The notes beneath the pieces were generated by a model, which made no database searches, was not told where the DNA came from, and saw nothing but the letters and a program-made list of their open reading frames with translations. Positions 31,745 to 59,373 of a DNA stretch of 64,000 nucleotides are shown piece by piece. Each line of letters opens with the position of its first letter. Positions within the stretch are counted from its first letter, which is position 1. The translations under genes were made by a program, and so were the position numbers. Origin of the DNA: an uncultured Clostridia bacterium (GTDB taxonomy: Bacteria > Bacillota > Clostridia > TANB77 > CAG-508); assembly GCA_904384205.1 (NCBI GenBank), contig CAJFJY010000001.1:19690-83689 (forward strand). The letters run 5' to 3'.

Positions 31745-32398
31745 ATGTTAGCATATATTAGAGGAACACTAGAGATGAAATTGTCAAGCTATGTAGTAAT
31801 AGATGTAGGGGGACTTGGATATAAAATATATATGTCGGACAAAGGAATCGACAACTTAGGTAATATTGGAGAAGAAACAAAAGTGTACACATATTATCGA
31901 GTAAGAGAAGATGATATAAGTATATTTGGATTTAATACATTAGAAGAATTAAAAATGTTTGAACTATTATTAGGAGTAAGTGGAGTAGGAGCAAAAACAG
32001 CAATAGCAATGATAGATGTTTGTGAACCTTCAGAATTCGCACTTGCAGTAATTTCAGAAGATGTAAAAACATTAACAACAATACCAGGAATAGGACCTAA
32101 ATCAGCAAAAAGAATAATATTAGAACTCAAAGACAAAATAAAGAAAGAGCAACAAATAGAAGAATTAGAAATGGCATCTAAAGTAATAAAATCAAACAAG
32201 GAAATCGAAACAGGCCTTAAAGTAAAACAAGCAATTGAAGATGATAATAAAATGTTAGAAGCAGTAGCAGCATTACAAGTTCTAGGATATAATAAGAAAA
32301 TAATAGAGCAAGCATTTGAAAAAATAGAAAATAAGAAAGAATTAACGACAGAAGAATTAATTAAAAAAGGATTAATCATGTTAGCAAAAGGAATATGA
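31745..32398 (+). CDS. ruvA: Holliday junction branch migration protein RuvA
   Basis: Domain I OB fold (IRGTLEMKLSSYVVIDVGGLGYKIY), HhH motifs (LLGVSGVGAKTAIAMI; IPGIGPKSAKRII) and a C-terminal domain III. Confidence 0.9.
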   Translation: MLAYIRGTLEMKLSSYVVIDVGGLGYKIYMSDKGIDNLGNIGEETKVYTYYRVREDDISIFGFNTLEELKMFELLLGVSGVGAKTAIAMIDVCEPSEFALAVISEDVKTLTTIPGIGPKSAKRIILELKDKIKKEQQIEELEMASKVIKSNKEIETGLKVKQAIEDDNKMLEAVAALQVLGYNKKIIEQAFEKIENKKELTTEELIKKGLIMLAKGI

Positions 32399-32412
32399 GA
32401 GGTGTGATTAAT

Positions 32413-33654
32413 ATGAATTCAAATGAACCGCTAGCATATAGAATGAGACCCAAAACATTAGAAGAGTATGTTGGACAAGAACATGTTTTAGGAAAAGATA
32501 AAATTCTATATAGAACAATAAAAGCAGATAGACTATCAAGTATAATATTATTTGGACCTCCAGGGTGTGGAAAAACATCACTAGCAAGAGTAATAAGCGA
32601 AACCACAAAATACAAATTTTATAAAATAAATGCAGTAACAGCAGGAGTTGCAGACATAAAAAGAGTCATAGAAGAAACAAAAAATTTTATGATAAACCCA
32701 ACAGGAAAAAGCATATTATTTATAGATGAGATTCATAGATTTAATAAATTACAACAAGATGCATTATTGCCGTATGTAGAAAATGGAACAATAATATTAA
32801 TAGGAGCAACAACCGAAAATCCATATTTTGAAGTAAATAAAGCTTTAATTTCTAGATCAATGGTAATAAAATTAGAACCATTAACAGAAGAAAATATATT
32901 TACAATATTAAAAAATTCATTAGAAAGAAAAGATGGATTAGGAGAATATAATATAAAAATAGAAGATGAGACACTAAAAAAGCTTGCAATAATAGCAAAT
33001 GGAGATGTAAGAACAGCATTAAATGGTTTAGAAGTAGCAGTACTAACAACAAATATGGATTCAGATGGATATATTCATATAACAGATGAAATTATAAAAA
33101 ATAGTGTGCAAGATAGAAAAGCAATATTTGATAAAAACGGAGACTCACATTATGATAATATAAGTGCTTTTATAAAATCAATGAGAGGTTCAGACCCAGA
33201 TGCAACAGTATTCTATTTAGCAAGAGCATTAAACGGAGGAGAAGATCCAATGTTTCTTGCAAGAAGAATAGTAATATGTGCATCAGAAGATGTAGGAATG
33301 GCAAATCCTAATGCACTGGTAGTAGCAAATTCTGCAATGCAAGCAGTACATATGGTAGGAATGCCAGAAGCGAGAATATTACTTTCAGAAGCTGCAATAT
33401 ATGTAGCAACATCTAAAAAATCAAATGCATCATACTTAGCTATTGATAAAGCATTACAAGATGTTAAAACAAAGGATACAGGAGAAATACCAATGCATAT
33501 AAGAAATGCACCTGTAGAACAAATGAAAGCATTAGGATATCATGAAGGCTATTTATACCCACATGATTTTCCAGGACATTATGTAGAACAACAATATTTG
33601 CCAGATAAAATGCTTGGAACAAAATATTATATAAAAGATGAAAATATTCCATAA
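32413..33654 (+). CDS. rarA: Replication-associated recombination protein A (RarA/MgsA AAA+ ATPase)
   Basis: LAYRMRPKTLEEYVGQEHVLG, Walker A GPPGCGKTS, DEIHRFNKLQQDALLP and C-terminal MgsA domain. Start at the ATG after SD GAGAGGTG. Confidence 0.9.
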   Translation: MNSNEPLAYRMRPKTLEEYVGQEHVLGKDKILYRTIKADRLSSIILFGPPGCGKTSLARVISETTKYKFYKINAVTAGVADIKRVIEETKNFMINPTGKSILFIDEIHRFNKLQQDALLPYVENGTIILIGATTENPYFEVNKALISRSMVIKLEPLTEENIFTILKNSLERKDGLGEYNIKIEDETLKKLAIIANGDVRTALNGLEVAVLTTNMDSDGYIHITDEIIKNSVQDRKAIFDKNGDSHYDNISAFIKSMRGSDPDATVFYLARALNGGEDPMFLARRIVICASEDVGMANPNALVVANSAMQAVHMVGMPEARILLSEAAIYVATSKKSNASYLAIDKALQDVKTKDTGEIPMHIRNAPVEQMKALGYHEGYLYPHDFPGHYVEQQYLPDKMLGTKYYIKDENIP

Positions 33655-49513: not shown

Positions 49514-50134
49514 ATGAACCAAAAACTTATTGCCAAAAGCAATTTTGTTCTAAGTCAAGTTTTAAATTCAGAAGACAGCTTAGATATATTACAAGATTTT
49601 ATAGAAGCAATATTAAAAATAAAAATTGAAGAAATAAAATTAAATAATCATAAAGGAGAAAATGTAGTGACATCGAAAAATTTTGGAATAGCTGATGTCA
49701 GAATAAAGACAGAAGATAAAAAAGAAATGAATGTTGGAATTCAAATAATTGATGGTAAATATATTCAAACAAAATTATTGTTATATTATGCACAAGTTCA
49801 CAATTTTCAATTAAAAAGTAATGGGAAGATTGCGAAAACAATCACAATAAACATACTTAACGATAATTGTTATAAAACATATTGTTATCATCAAAAAATA
49901 ACTTTAAAAAATAAGGAACCTAGCTTTGAAGAAGAGAAGATAGAATTACATATAATCGAGTTGTTAAAATTTCAACCAATATTTTTGCATCAACTAAATA
50001 AAGAAGAACAATGGATAACATATTTAAAAGGACAATATGTAGAAGAAATAGAAAGAGTAAAAAGAATGAACTATAAAATCAATAAATTAGATAAGTTAGT
50101 TGATAAATATTGGAAAGATGAAGTAATAGAATAA
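49514..50134 (+). CDS. Rpn/YhgA-like PD-(D/E)XK nuclease family protein (short paralog, 206 aa)
   Basis: FGIADVRIKTEDKKEMNVGIQII, YYAQVHNFQLKSNGKIAKTITINILN and IELHIIELLKF match the Rpn nuclease-core blocks. No C-terminal GIEQ tail. Confidence 0.7.
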   Translation: MNQKLIAKSNFVLSQVLNSEDSLDILQDFIEAILKIKIEEIKLNNHKGENVVTSKNFGIADVRIKTEDKKEMNVGIQIIDGKYIQTKLLLYYAQVHNFQLKSNGKIAKTITINILNDNCYKTYCYHQKITLKNKEPSFEEEKIELHIIELLKFQPIFLHQLNKEEQWITYLKGQYVEEIERVKRMNYKINKLDKLVDKYWKDEVIE

Positions 50135-53668: not shown

Positions 53669-53950
53669 ATGTCTGACAAGAAAAATAATAAAAAGAATAA
53701 TAATAAAAATTATGATGAAGATTATAATCCAAGATTTAGAAAACAAAGAAAAAAAGTATGTGCATTATGTAGTGACAAAAACTTCAATTTAGATTATAAA
53801 AATTATGATCAAATGAAGAAATTTGTAAATGATAAAGGTAAAATATTACCAAGAAGAACAACCGGTGCATGTGCTAAACATCAAAGAGATATTACAATAG
53901 CTGTAAAAAGAGCTAGACATATTGCAATATTACCATATACACAAAATTAA
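53669..53950 (+). CDS. rpsR: 30S ribosomal protein S18
   Basis: [60 protein letters not shown]. Confidence 0.9.
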
Positions 53951-53968
53951 TTTAAATAAGGAATAAGT

Positions 53969-53994
53969 AAAACCGTTGAAAATCAACGGTTTTT
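53969..53994 (+). terminator. Rho-independent terminator (AAAACCGTTGAAAATCAACGGTTTTT)
   Basis: Direct reading. Confidence 0.75.
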
Positions 53995-54188
53995 AATATT
54001 TTGTAAATAGAAATATATAGAAGTAAAAATAAAAACTAAACACTTACAGTGATGTAGGTGTTTTTTAAGATTTTAGTAAACTTTGGAATGAAATATTTAA
54101 AATTCAAGAGTTGACAAAAATTTCTAATAATATATAATGTAAGAGGCATAATATATTTAGTACTCAAAATTAAAAAGGAGGGTAAAAT

Positions 54189-56795
54189 ATGTCTGAAAAC
54201 GAAGAACATGAAAAACATGTAAAAGAAATGATTGATAGCTTAGTAGAAAAGGCAAAAAAAGCATCAGAAGAATACCTAAAACTTAATCAAGAGCAAGTAG
54301 ACAATATAGTAAAAGCAATGTCAATGGCAGGATTAGAGCATCATATGGAACTAGCAAAAATGGCAGTAGAAGAAACAAAAAGAGGAATATACGAAGATAA
54401 AATCACTAAAAATATGTTTGCAACAGAATATATTTATCATAGTATAAAATATGAAAAAACAGTAGGAATAATAGATGAAAACGAAGAAGAAGACTATGCA
54501 GAAATAGCAGAACCAGTAGGAATAATAGCAGGAGTAACACCTGTAACAAACCCAACATCAACAACAATGTTTAAATCAATAATATCTGCAAAAACCAGAA
54601 ATGTAATAATATTTGGATTCCATCCATCAGCACAAAAATGTAGCAGTAAAGCAGCACAAATATTAAGAGATGCAGCAATAAAAGCAGGAGCACCAGAAAA
54701 TTGCATATTATGGATAGAAGAACCATCAATAGAAGCAACAAGAGCATTAATGAATCATCCAGATGTAAACTTAATACTAGCAACAGGGGGAACAGGAATG
54801 GTAAGATCTGCATACTCATGTGGTAAACCAGCATTAGGAGTAGGACCTGGAAATGTGCCTTGTTACATTGACAAAACAGCAAAACTAAAAACATCAGTAA
54901 ATGATTTAGTAATGTCAAAATCATTTGACAATGGAATGATATGTGCATCTGAGCAAGCAGTTTTAGTAGATGACGAAATAGTAGAAGAATTTGAAAAGCT
55001 AATGAAAGAAGCAGGATGCTATTTTGTAAATGAAGAAGAAAAGCAAAAATTAGCAAATAACATGTTCGAATATACAGATGAATATGGATATAAATTAAAA
55101 TCAAATATACCTGGACAATATCCATATGATATAGCAAAAAATGCAGGATTTGAAATACCAAAAGATACAAAAGTAATTGTAGTTCCAGAAACAGGAATAG
55201 GAAGGGATTATCCATTCTCAAAAGAAAAATTAAGTCCAGTTTTAACATATTATATTGTAAAAGATGCAGATGAAGGAATAACAAAATCAGAACAATTAAT
55301 AGAATTTGGAGGATTAGGCCATTCAGCAGTAATACACTCTGAGAACCAAGATGATATATTAAAATTTTCTGAAACTGTAAAAGCAGGAAGAATAATAGTA
55401 AATTCACCATCAACACATGGAGCAATAGGTGATATATATAATACAAATATGCCATCACTTACACTTGGTTGTGGTTCATTTGGAGGAAATTCAACAACAG
55501 CAAATGTATCATCAGTTAATTTAATAAATATAAAAAGAGTTGCAAAAAGGAGGGTAAATATGCAGTGGTTTAAAATTCCAGAAAAAATATATTTTGAAGC
55601 AGGTTCAATACAATACCTAGAGAAAATGCCAGATATAGAAAGAGCATTTATAGTAACAGATGAAGGAATGGTAAAATTAGGATATGTAGATAAAATCCTA
55701 TATCATTTAAGAAATAGAAGACAATATGTACATTCAGAAATATTTAGCGCAGTAGAATCAGACCCATCATTTGATACAATAATGAAGGGTGTAGAAGCAA
55801 TGAAAAGCTTTAATCCAGATGTAATAATAGCAATTGGTGGAGGAAGCCCAATAGATGCAGCAAAAGGAATGTGGCTTTTATATGAACATCCAGATGCAGA
55901 TTTAGAAGGTTTAAAACTTAAATTTATGGATATAAGAAAAAGAACATATAAATTTCCAAAACTAGGACAAAAATGTAAAATGGTAGCAATACCAACAACA
56001 TCAGGAACAGGTTCAGAAGTAACATCATTTGCAGTAATAACAGATAAAGAAAAAAATAAAAAATATCCATTAGCAGATTATGAATTAACACCAGATGTTG
56101 CAATAGTAGACCCAGATTTAGTAATGAGTCTACCAAAATCAGTTACAGCAGATACAGGAATGGATGTATTAACACATGCATTAGAAGCATATGTATCAAA
56201 TATGGCATCAGATTATACAGATGGACTAGCAGAAAAGGCAGTAGAATTAGTATTTAAATATTTAAAAGAAGCATATGATGATGGAACTAACAAGCAAGCT
56301 AGAGAAAAAATGCATAATGCAAGTACAATAGCAGGAATGGCATTTACAAACGCATTTTTAGGAGTATGTCATTCAATGGCACATAAAATAGGTGCAGAAT
56401 TTCATTTACCACATGGCAAAATAAATGCAATATTACTACCATATGTTGTAAGATATAACAGTTCTATGCCAACAAAATTTGTATCATTCCCAAAATATGA
56501 ATACTATATAGCAGACGAAAAATATTATACAATGGCAAAGAAAGTAGGATTAAAGGCAGATAGTAAAGAAGAAGGAATAAAAAGTTTAATAGAAAAAATA
56601 AAAGAAATGAATGAACATTTAAATATTCCAAAATCATTTAAAGATGCAGGAATAGATGAACAAGAATTTTTAGCTAAGGTAGATATGTTAGCAGATAGGG
56701 CTTTTGAGGATCAATGTACAACTGCTAATCCTAGGGTACCATTAGTAGAAGAGATTAAGCAGATTATGTTGGATAGCTACTATGGAAATTGGTAA
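54189..56795 (+). CDS. adhE: Bifunctional aldehyde/alcohol dehydrogenase
   Basis: N-terminal ALDH domain (catalytic Cys in GMICASEQ), linker, and C-terminal Fe-ADH domain ([10 protein letters not shown], iron-binding His residues). 868 aa. Confidence 0.95.
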
Positions 56796-56914
56796 TTGGA
56801 AAATAATTACAATTTTGGCGTTGTTAAACTTCATTTGAAATTTAATCAACGTACATAAGTACGTCTCATAAATTTCAAATTTGTTTGCCTAGCCAAAATT
56901 TAATTCTTTCCCAA
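56794..56914 (+). repeat. Family G copy 1: about 120-bp nested palindrome beginning TAATTGGAAAATAATTACAATTTTGGCG...ACGTACATAAGTACGT...GCCAAAATTTAATTCTTTCCCAA, starting on the adhE TAA stop
   Basis: Inverted pairs CAATTTTGGC/GCCAAAATT and ATTTGAAATTTA/TAAATTTCAAAT, and a central ACGTAC-N4-GTACGT. Confidence 0.85.
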
Positions 56915-57071
56915 TCACGATTGGAGTAAGTAAAATTCTTTTCCAATCTGTTATAGGATAATTAATTTAAAAATACGAAAGAATTATAGTTTGGATATAT
57001 TAAGTAAGAATTACTTTGAATAATAAGTACTCTACCAAAACATAATTCTTTTTTCATAAATAGGAGGAAAA

Positions 57072-58454
57072 ATGAAAATATTTAGAAAGAAAAAAGAAGA
57101 GAAGAAGCCAGAAATAGAGCAACAAGAAGTAGTACAAGAAGTTGTAGAAAAAGCAGAAGAAGAATTTAAAACGATAAAAGAGCAAAAAGCAGATGAAGGA
57201 AATATTAGACAAAAAGCAATAGAACTCACAGCTAAAAGGATTCTGCAAATATTTAAAGATTCGCCTAGATATATGCAATATGTACAGGATATAGCAAAAA
57301 ATTTAGCGGAAGAATCAGAATTGCCAACAGAAGTTGTAGTAGAAATGATAAAGGGAACAATAGAGCAAAAAGAATTGCCAAATAGTATTGCAGAAGAAAT
57401 GGCCCAAATATTACCAGATGAAGAAATAGTAAGTGCTATTGAAAGTGATGATAATTTAAAATTAAAACATAAAGAAGTATTAGCAGCAGGAATAGGTGAT
57501 AAAGAAACAAGATTAGAAGTAGAGAAAGATATAAGAACGCAAAAGGAAATAGCAGAAGAACAAAGAACATTAAGCACATTAAAAGAATTATATGAAAATT
57601 GTGAAAATATACCTGAAAGAATATTAACAGATAAAATAAAAGGATTATCAATACAAGAAAAAACAGAATCAATACAAAAAATTTTAGATAAAATAGTAGC
57701 TAGAAAAATAGCAGATGATTATTCTAAATTTGGAAGTACAATGTTAGATACATTAAAGAATATCGTTTCTGTTGAAGATATGTATGAGTATCATATCGCA
57801 GATTTAGCACAAGAGGAATATCAAGATAAAATATCACAAGGAATACAAACTGAAAAAAGTTATAATAAAAGAGATTTTGAAGACAATTTGTTAAAACATA
57901 TGGCAGGAGATATTGCAAGAAAATTTTTTGCTACGTCAAAATACATAATACCACCATTAAAAAGATTTAGGAGTATAGAAAAAAGAGAAAAAGATTTATT
58001 CCTATCAGAAATACAAAAAGAAACAAGCAAAACATTAACAAAGATGCAAATATCAGATATAGAAGGTCAAATGCAAGGAATAATAGGAACAAATGCAGAC
58101 ATTGAAGAACTAGCAGAAAAATTATTCGAAACACCTAAAAAGAAAGCCAAAAATATAATAAATGTAGCTAAAAAAATGACAAGTGAAGATGATAGAAATT
58201 ATAATACTGTTATGTCATTGCAAGAATCAGGTTTATTAGAAACTTTAGCAAAAATGCCAAGAGAAAAAAGAGAAAAATATATAGAAGCATTCTCAAGATT
58301 TATGCAAGATAGAGAAGTAAGAAATCAACCAAAAAGAAAAGTAGAAGACAATCAAGAAAATACAATAAACCAACAACAAAATGATGGACAAGTAAAAAAT
58401 AATACTGAACGAAATCCAGAAACGCCTGATACTCACGGAGAAGAAAATAGATAA
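57072..58454 (+). CDS. Hypothetical acidic 460-aa protein (no recognisable domain), bracketed by direct copies of repeat G
   Basis: ORF with SD AGGAGGAAAAATG. Glu/Lys/Gln-rich and probably alpha-helical. Confidence 0.5.
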   Translation: MKIFRKKKEEKKPEIEQQEVVQEVVEKAEEEFKTIKEQKADEGNIRQKAIELTAKRILQIFKDSPRYMQYVQDIAKNLAEESELPTEVVVEMIKGTIEQKELPNSIAEEMAQILPDEEIVSAIESDDNLKLKHKEVLAAGIGDKETRLEVEKDIRTQKEIAEEQRTLSTLKELYENCENIPERILTDKIKGLSIQEKTESIQKILDKIVARKIADDYSKFGSTMLDTLKNIVSVEDMYEYHIADLAQEEYQDKISQGIQTEKSYNKRDFEDNLLKHMAGDIARKFFATSKYIIPPLKRFRSIEKREKDLFLSEIQKETSKTLTKMQISDIEGQMQGIIGTNADIEELAEKLFETPKKKAKNIINVAKKMTSEDDRNYNTVMSLQESGLLETLAKMPREKREKYIEAFSRFMQDREVRNQPKRKVEDNQENTINQQQNDGQVKNNTERNPETPDTHGEENR

Positions 58455-58555
58455 TTTTTCACACAAAAAACACATTAAAAGTAAATTTTCATAACAATAA
58501 ATAATTATGATATGCATATACTTAAGATAGAAATGAATAAGGAGTGTATGCATAG

Positions 58556-58675
58556 TTGAAAAATAATTACAATTTTGGCGTCGTCAAACTTCATTTGGAA
58601 TTTAATCAACGTACACACGTACGCCTCATAAATTCCAAACTCGTTTTCCTTGCCAAAATTTAATTCTTTTCCAAC
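58556..58675 (+). repeat. Family G copy 2 (same orientation as copy 1, about 90 % identical)
   Basis: TTGAAAAATAATTACAATTTTGGCGTCGTCAAACTTCATTTGGAATTTAATCAACGTACACACGTACGCCTCATAAATTCCAAAC...GCCAAAATTTAATTCTTTTCCAA. Confidence 0.85.
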
Positions 58676-58710
58676 ATGTTCTGAACTTCATGGAAGGAAT
58701 GATAATATAT

Positions 58711-59373
58711 ATGAAAAAGAAAAAACCAAAAGAAAATCAATTATTAAAAATAGAAAATTTTTTAGCAGTTGATCAAAATTTAGACTTTAATAGTAAGACC
58801 TTCAACAAAATAATGTTTATATATTCTGTGGGAATAAAGGAATTAAAAAATAAATTAGAAATAGCAAAAGATGAATTTGAAATATTTTATGACTATAATT
58901 TAATTGACCATATAAATACAAGAATAAAAAAACCAGAAAGTATCAAAGAAAAAATGGAGAATAAAGACCTAAATTTTACATATAAAGAAATGATAGAAAA
59001 TGTAAATGATATTGCAGGAGTAAGAGTAATATGCCCATTAAAAAAGGACATCTTTTCTGTAAGAAATCTAGTTGAAAAAATGGATAATATTGAAATAATA
59101 AAAGAAAAAGACTATGTAACAAATCCAAAAAAGAGTGGCTATTCAAGTTATCATATGGTGTTAGAAGTTCCAATAATATTGTCACAAAAAACAATGTATG
59201 TAAAAGTTGAATTGCAAATAAGAACAATGGCAATGGACTTTTGGGCAAGCTTAGAACACAATATGAAATATAAACCAAAAAATGAACTTACAAAAGCACA
59301 ATCAAAAGAATTAGTAAATTATGCCAAAATAATAAATAAGTTGGACAATAAGATGACATTAATAGGGACGTAA
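58711..59373 (+). CDS. Small alarmone synthetase (RelA/SpoT-domain (p)ppGpp synthetase, RelQ/RelP-like)
   Basis: Synthetase-domain blocks IAGVRVICP, SGYSSYHMVLEV and VELQIRTMAMDFWASLEH. No hydrolase or TGS domains. The last codons (IGT-TAA) lie inside repeat B3. Confidence 0.8.
   Translation: MKKKKPKENQLLKIENFLAVDQNLDFNSKTFNKIMFIYSVGIKELKNKLEIAKDEFEIFYDYNLIDHINTRIKKPESIKEKMENKDLNFTYKEMIENVNDIAGVRVICPLKKDIFSVRNLVEKMDNIEIIKEKDYVTNPKKSGYSSYHMVLEVPIILSQKTMYVKVELQIRTMAMDFWASLEHNMKYKPKNELTKAQSKELVNYAKIINKLDNKMTLIGT

Follow-up and report, generated by a model that had tools for sequence, protein, structure and literature searches.

A family of palindromic repeats was characterized starting from a 64,000-nt stretch of DNA of an uncultured Clostridia bacterium (GenBank assembly GCA_904384205.1, contig CAJFJY010000001.1, positions 19,690 to 83,689 of the forward strand; the whole stretch is referred to as the window). 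Three copies, termed G1, G2 and G3, were located behind adhE, in front of the alarmone synthetase gene relQ, and between sigA and mscS, respectively. G1 and G2 enclose an open reading frame (ORF) of 460 amino acids. The family is probably a non-autonomous mobile palindromic repeat, which resembles MITEs (miniature inverted-repeat transposable elements), REPINs and ERIC sequences in form and mycobacterial interspersed repetitive units (MIRUs) in its placement at start codons. G1, G2 and the sigA remnant are likely to stem from three independent insertions of different ages. The family is apparently undescribed hitherto, and, as far as its hosts are known from the matches, it has become dispersed across a lineage of gut Clostridia that are uncultured, low in G+C and spore-forming.

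Copies in the window and their insertion states

G1 (56793-56914) and G2 (58553-58674) were returned by a repeat finder as a 122-nt direct repeat with 89% identity in one orientation. This agreed with a preliminary description of the region, made from the sequence alone, which had reported two copies of about 120 bp and about 90% identity. The 18-mer ATAATTACAATTTTGGCG of the 5' arm occurred twice in the window (0.16 occurrences expected), and a hidden Markov model (HMM) of the family detected two full copies in the 64 kb. Each copy folded into a single long imperfect hairpin, as had been proposed, with -35.2 (G1) and -30.8 kcal/mol (G2) for RNA of the plus strand; the z-scores relative to dinucleotide shuffles are given in Table 1. 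The minus strand folded more strongly (-42.7 and -45.0 kcal/mol). One genuine compensatory change was found between the two copies (A56838-T56875 in G1, G58598-C58635 in G2). The pair quoted earlier as compensatory (T...G in G1, C...T in G2) turned out to be a U.G wobble changed to a C x U mismatch, at a place where the consensus structure of the family has no pairing. G1 and G2 were each more similar to copies from other species (93-95% identity) than to one another (89%).

The insertion state of G2 was determined by comparison of contigs (designated by L numbers). G2 was present in 15 same-species contigs spanning the relQ junction and absent from two others, L002 with an identical 460-amino-acid ORF and L135 with an identical RelQ. 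It was also absent from three relatives, in which the ORF was 93% (L128), 67% (L126) and 60% (L127) identical. The empty allele was GGAGTGTATG^TATATATGAAAAAG in L002, L135, L128 and L126, and differed by one substitution in L127; across the junction, the empty site reads AATAAGGAGTGTATG followed directly by TATATATGAAAAAG. Since L128 and L126 carry this empty sequence, and L127 does so with the one substitution, the empty state is ancestral. The insertion comprised exactly 155 nt (58551-58705) in the spacer between the relQ Shine-Dalgarno sequence (SD) and the ATG, and no base was lost. The original SD of relQ (AAGGAG, 58541-58546) is now separated from the gene by G2. The inserted segment consisted of CATAG (5 nt), the hairpin core TTG...CCAA (58556-58674) and, at 58675-58705, a tail of 31 nt with the SD-like sequence GGAAGGAA at 58692-58699, 11 nt upstream of the relQ ATG. 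No target-site duplication was found at this one clean event (GGAGTGTATG^TATATATG to the filled site). Duplications of TGAAAAA, of ATG and of SD length were tried and rejected; each required mismatches, the flanks were otherwise identical between the alleles, and the alignment with no duplication was exact. As read from these alleles, G2 is a recent insertion that is still polymorphic within the species, a presence/absence polymorphism of the kind seen with MITEs.

G1 was found in all 17 same-species contigs spanning the adhE-ORF junction. At the same site, L126 contained a remnant in which the 5' arm was joined to the decayed copies further downstream. By this distribution, G1 is older than G2, and the copies flanking the ORF were inserted at different times. 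The core of G1 (TTGG...CCAA) covers 56796-56914 and is not followed by the canonical SD tail. The first three bases of G1, as delimited in the preliminary description, are the TAA stop codon of adhE (56793-56795). Behind G1, a collapsed mini-copy (56920-56947) matched the 3' arm weakly with the HMM (56934-56948); it was retained in L126, and a similar collapsed copy was found in L044. The inverted pair at 56977-57055 gave matches to the 3' arm with three mismatches on both strands, and its first arm was an inverted-repeat match to the 3' end of G1; judged by this resemblance, it is probably a further, decayed copy. In L004, a 46-nt deletion was located in this decayed region upstream of the ORF (L004:9980-10010).

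A third copy behind sigA had been noted as a 5' fragment. Its 5' arm (62810-62832, 23 nt, 22 of them identical) was real, and its TAA is the sigA stop codon. Because the family 3' tail GTGTAAAGGAAGGAATGAGATAAAAA with its SD (62851-62876) and the mscS start codon follow, G3 is an internally deleted copy and more than a 5' fragment; the tail abuts the mscS ATG at 62877. The sigA-mscS junction held one full copy each in L052 and L095, and three in tandem in L035. Derivatives resembling G3, in which a 5' arm is joined to a tail, were found in L063, L037 and L086. Decay by internal deletion, leaving the 5' arm and the tail, was thus seen at several sites.

The 460-amino-acid ORF had been suggested to be acquired, duplicated or bracketed through the element. 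Orthologues (60-93% identical) were located upstream of relQ in all three relatives L126-L128, and the relQ-side repeat was absent in each. The ORF was preceded by adhE in L126 and L127, the two relatives in which the upstream gene was visible. The idea of ORF capture was refuted because L127 retains the order adhE-ORF-relQ without a repeat at either junction. A direct adhE-relQ junction lacking the ORF, which had been thought of in the same connection, was found in none of 10 contexts of the identical RelQ protein. On this comparison of gene order, the ORF is a resident gene that is older than the repeats and is not their cargo. Three short-read Logan contigs containing the ORF (L008-L010, 1705-1724 nt) started inside G1 and stopped inside G2, and assemblies of this species are thus interrupted by the repeat family.

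Anatomy, distribution and placement of the family

Further copies were collected by scanning one genome per prokaryotic species with the pattern TACAATTTTGGC-N50-80-GCCAAAATTTA, which fixes 23 nt of the arms. At least 115 loci were obtained from at least about 70 assemblies (species-level metagenome-assembled genomes, tallied by accession prefix). Among the matches listed, all hosts were uncultured Clostridia or Clostridiales metagenome-assembled genomes recovered from the gut of humans, rabbits, chickens, deer and ruminants. The HMM was built from these loci, and the copy counts below refer to their 880 kb. It identified 140 distinct copies, 129 of them near full length, and the strand assignment was unambiguous (about 120 versus 35 bits). 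Apart from the copy by which a locus had been retrieved, about one copy was found per 30-40 kb; the density in the window was similar. Rfam gave no match at the gathering score in the window, and a permissive search of 56700-58800 gave only chance-level matches (E at least 0.86, scores well below each gathering score). As possible vectors for spread, PLSDB plasmids, GenBank phages and IMG/VR contigs were searched, and no family match was obtained. No description of the family was found by full-text literature searches.

The unit consists of an imperfect hairpin core of about 124 nt and a 3' tail of about 30-35 nt. The arms TTGAAAAATAATTACAATTTTGGC ... GCCAAAATTTAATTCTTTTCCAA were nearly invariant, and conservation dropped steeply outside TTG...CAA; arm conservation beyond the 23 nt of the pattern is not due to construction. 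The arms are complementary except for two mismatches and one bulged C, and represent terminal inverted repeats as in MITEs. Both mismatches (A x C, U x C) and the bulged C recurred in nearly all copies (>100). The centre was of at least three unrelated sequence types, every one of them self-complementary. The tail (consensus ATTTGTGCCTTaGaAAGGAATGaGATTAAAaATG) was moderately conserved and contained the SD. A frame opened by the TTG (MKNNYNFG...) ended after 13-60 codons, with stops in all frames, and was shifted by 1-nt indels in the loops. A small protein gene in the element was ruled out by these stops and frame shifts, and an N-terminal extension fused in frame to the following gene, as in RPE elements, by read-through in only one or two copies. 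With a short core and tail, many copies and an internal frame that is not conserved, the unit is also MITE-like in being small and non-coding.

Constraint on the hairpin had been proposed in the preliminary description and was borne out by the alignment of 122 distinct copies. In the consensus structure, 97% of the cells were paired, compared with 24-52% when the partners were slid by 1-3 columns. Of the 35 stem pairs, 27 had changes on both sides; the observed values were not reached in any of 500 shuffles. The covariation signal was derived from helices outside the search pattern. The two base pairs flanking TTG...CAA on the outside also covaried (GC in 65-79, with AU, UA and CG as alternatives). 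G.U and A.C combinations at paired columns (about 47 versus 36) were uninformative as to the strand under selection.

Several structural variants were observed. A subfamily with a 7-nt insertion at alignment columns 38-44 (GCGCAGTGGCGAAC replacing GT-CAAAC) was represented in L045, L087, L107, L086, L015, L056 and L096; the insertion was confined to the 5' side of an internal loop and occurred with centres of type A and type B. Tandem arrays of at least three copies with a period of about 129 nt were found at L035:4114-4506, at L030:2669-3962 and in L011/L020 (one contig). In these arrays, the 5' TTG of the next copy was supplanted by the ATG of the shortened tail of the preceding copy. In L035, the outer stem was rewritten (TTTGAATGAAATT / AATTTCATTCAAA) with complete complementarity.

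Between co-directional genes, 65 copies were in sense orientation and one was antisense, a bias such as that of MIRUs. A co-oriented ORF followed 94 of 116 copies, and 7 copies were located between convergent genes. SD-like 5-mers peaked 9-13 nt upstream of the element TTG (60 of 125 copies, compared with 14-22% in control windows), and the TTG is therefore at the position of a start codon. In 45 of 80 copies, the stop codon of the upstream ORF either overlapped the TTGA (12 cases) or ended at most 10 nt short of the TTG. G1 and G3 belong to this stop-adjacent class, G2 to the SD class. Of 59 scorable copies, 50 had the downstream start codon 30-39 nt past the core. Within 12 nt, the 5' end of the element closes two of three reading frames. 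Genes behind 89 copies matched 144 Pfam families, none of which was represented in more than three proteins; examples are IMPDH, trigger factor, tRNA synthetases, MscS and SpoIIIA. Since these genes are functionally unrelated, the element is not the leader of a regulon, and a riboswitch was ruled out likewise. The ruvA junction of the window was unoccupied (32396-32415; TGA, GAGGTGTGATTAAT, ATG). In another species, with a downstream protein 90% identical, this junction (L086:1340-1550) held a full copy and a deleted copy, and RuvA ran 19 extra codons into the element.

Coordinates and neighbouring genes

The coordinates of the copies and of the genes next to them are collected in Table 1. The gene identities given in the preliminary description (adhE, an ORF of unknown function, relQ, sigA) were confirmed; the neighbours were AdhE, the ORF, a small synthetase with RelA/SpoT domain, DnaG, SigA and MscS. 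The 460-amino-acid ORF had no match in Pfam, NCBIfam or PHROG, and homologues were found in this lineage only.

Table 1. Repeat copies and adjacent genes in the window. z, plus-strand hairpin z-score relative to dinucleotide shuffles.
Feature	Position	Strand	Description and basis
adhE	54189..56795	+	868 amino acids; Pfam Aldedh and Fe-ADH
G1	56793..56914	+	full palindromic copy, type A centre; repeat, hairpin z = -8.4, HMM 104.8 bits
Collapsed mini-copy	56920..56947	+	ATTGGAGTAAGTAAAATTCTTTTCCAAT; outer stem retained, interior gone; from sequence
Degenerate inverted pair	56977..57055	unassigned	3'-arm-like sequences GAAAGAATTATAGTTTGG ... CCAAAACATAATTCTTTT; just upstream of the SD of the ORF
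ORF	57072..58454	+	460 amino acids, K/E-rich, lineage-restricted; function unassigned
G2	58551..58705	+	155-nt inserted segment; filled and empty alleles, hairpin z = -7.8, HMM 113.7 bits
relQ-like gene	58711..59373	+	small alarmone synthetase, 220 amino acids; Pfam RelA_SpoT, gene calls on L001-L007
G3	62810..62876	+	between sigA and mscS, internally deleted; 5' arm, about 18 nt of filler, SD tail

Strain differences were also observed beside the repeats. In one strain (L003:1338-1855, corresponding to about 53950-54189 of the window), genes for a YoeB/ParE-type toxin and a Phd/YefM antitoxin were located between rpsR and adhE. They were missing from the window and the other contigs, which indicates a strain-level insertion polymorphism next to the locus. 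A second deletion in L004 (L004:11620-11700) removed the start region of relQ, and the gene call was 186 amino acids compared with 220. The adhE-ORF spacer of L127 (L127:224-321) contained a different pair of long palindromes (GAACTTGAACTTTAGGGACGTTCCTTAAAGTTCAAGTT...), which could represent a further repeat family or else a terminator. SigA (61406-62812) has a long, Lys/Glu-rich N-terminal extension, and its length differed between strains (468 and 470 amino acids). A 206-amino-acid PD-(D/E)XK_2 protein (Rpn/YhgA-like, 'transposase_31') is encoded about 7 kb upstream (about 49514-50134); it is at most a possible candidate nuclease.

Proposed mode of spread and alternative explanations

For a mobile repeat of this kind, the following course is proposed. 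The element would insert at gene junctions in sense orientation, and its 5' TTG(A) would replace the resident start codon or an ATGA-type stop/start overlap. The tail would provide a new SD at a fixed distance from the downstream start codon. Because the tail would in this way functionally replace the resident SD, as its position and sequence suggest, the downstream gene would stay translatable and the insertion would be tolerated. The closure of two frames within 12 nt and the TTG at the old start position may contribute to this tolerance. Targeting of initiation regions combined with selection would account for the near-absolute sense orientation, since a copy in antisense would cut the gene off from its SD without replacement. 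By analogy with a proposal for MIRUs, the short TTG-opened frame may aid the passage of ribosomes through the hairpin. Spread presumably occurs by transposition via an enzyme that acts in trans and recognizes the folded arms. The dispersed, MITE-like nature that had been postulated is supported by the size of the family and the presence/absence polymorphism at G2.

Several observations weigh against this explanation. In the 880 kb of loci, neither a transposase nor a longer element sharing these ends was detected. In the same loci, no pair of arms enclosed an ORF, and all 8 solo ends were accounted for by a truncation at a contig end, deletion derivatives or isolated arm fragments. Because no such partner was found, transposition is deduced only from one polymorphic site and the distribution of the copies. 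The lack of a target-site duplication is unlike classical MITEs. The invariance of the 23 arm nucleotides fixed by the search pattern is partly a matter of construction. In species pairs, the core of orthologous copies was conserved at least as well as neighbouring coding DNA; between L052 and L095, the core was 100% identical, mscS 81% and the tail region 62%. Such conservation requires purifying selection or homogenization among copies, and it is more readily reconciled with a selected function or with concerted evolution than with DNA that is purely selfish.

The last observation, together with the almost absolute sense orientation, the fixed geometry to the downstream start codon, the strong covariation across three unrelated centre types and the persistence of the mismatches and the bulged C in more than 100 copies, would be expected of a functional RNA module. 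In this case, the hairpin would lie in polycistronic mRNAs, would be bound or cleaved by a conserved protein (such as RNase III or some other RNA-binding protein) and would set the stability or translation of the flanking cistrons, and selection would retain it at many junctions. We consider this unlikely. The downstream genes share no common function, the copy at the relQ junction is dispensable in strains of the same species, and copies decay at several sites to a 5' arm and tail. The ratio of G.U to A.C gave no sign of a selected plus-strand RNA, and the minus strand folds better. An RNA module would be compatible with mobility, and the two are not exclusive. It is very unlikely that each copy is an independent small-RNA gene or the intrinsic terminator of the upstream gene, as the preliminary description had offered for the hairpins. 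Stable hairpins do follow immediately on the adhE and sigA stop codons, and the copies between convergent genes would suit a terminator. However, no plus-strand terminator-like site was present at G1 or G2, the stem is followed by an SD and a start codon and not by a U run, and promoter-like sites were at chance level (21 found, 21.1 expected). In addition, copies lie inside strings of co-oriented genes, half of them are inserted between a resident SD and its gene, and no Rfam family was matched.

An integron-like origin, in which the ORF and G2 would form a gene cassette captured at G1, is suggested by a superficial likeness to attC sites and the Vibrio VCR. These are likewise imperfect palindromes (about 60-140 nt for attC; about 120 nt and about 90% identical in the VCR comparison) that follow ORFs in direct orientation and contain conserved extrahelical, unpaired bases, and the tandem arrays of L035, L030 and L011/L020 also resemble them. 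The attC core sites have the consensus R'' RYYYAAC ... R' GTTRRRY. The ends of the element, GTTGAAA...TTCCAAC (GTTG...CAAC), do not fit this consensus and have the opposite polarity. Five contigs contain the ORF at this locus and lack G2, and L127 lacks any repeat there; the ORF between G1 and G2 is accordingly no cassette. Copies are dispersed among housekeeping genes (adhE, sigA, ruvA, tRNA synthetases, spoIIIA) and form no cassette array. In the window and the contexts inspected, no integrase gene came to notice, although no systematic search for integrases was made. Such an origin is therefore regarded as extremely improbable.

The mobile palindromic repeat favoured here shares features with several known systems. 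MIRUs are described as repeats that 'insert themselves at start codons', with a short ORF that stays translationally coupled to the gene (PMC12548453). Both MIRUs and the present element are intergenic repeats inside operons with a single orientation to transcription and occasional tandem arrays; in the element, the TTG is at start-codon distance from a resident SD, or the TTGA overlaps the upstream stop codon. The two are set apart by form, since MIRUs are direct tandem units of 46-101 bp and the element is a palindrome of about 124 nt found mostly as single copies. Moreover, MIRUs couple by a -4 overlap, whereas the element carries its own SD tail and an internal frame (13-60 codons) that is not conserved, and the host phylum is not that of the mycobacteria.

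The RAYT-mobilized REPIN/REP sequences are comparable as non-coding extragenic imperfect hairpins of about 100 nt with conserved arms and a less conserved middle, present in tens of copies per genome and lacking a target duplication. A GTAG-type REP motif was not identified in the element. REPINs are not known to be orientation-locked to genes or to carry an SD, and they have been described mainly in Proteobacteria. ERIC/IRU and Correia (NEMIS) elements are palindromic repeats of 100-155 bp in transcribed intergenic regions, are co-transcribed with their neighbours and, like the element, have deletion variants. They fold in mRNA, and Correia elements alter the expression of neighbouring genes and are substrates of RNase III. 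The element has no sequence similarity to ERIC/IRU or Correia. Correia elements come with a TA duplication, as do other MITEs such as RUP, in contrast to the one clean site studied here, and Correia elements occur in both orientations, unlike the element with its 65:1 sense bias.

The family is a marker of strain-level variation in gut Clostridia that are abundant yet uncultured. It would be a clear bacterial case outside the mycobacteria of a repeat that occupies translation-initiation regions with its own ribosome-binding site, and it bears on how mobile DNA may enter compact operons without silencing them. Conservation of the core above that of the neighbouring genes raises the question of the recognizing protein. 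It is conceivable, although doubtful, that the element is a mobile translation-initiation module (a hairpin with its own SD), targeted to start codons and junctions without duplication, under sequence-level selection stronger than that on the neighbouring genes, with a conserved protein reading the folded arms. The family would then represent a genome-wide signal for post-transcriptional control or recombination across this lineage of gut Clostridia, beyond tolerated junk. Strains with and without G2 constitute a natural pair for the effect of the element on relQ.

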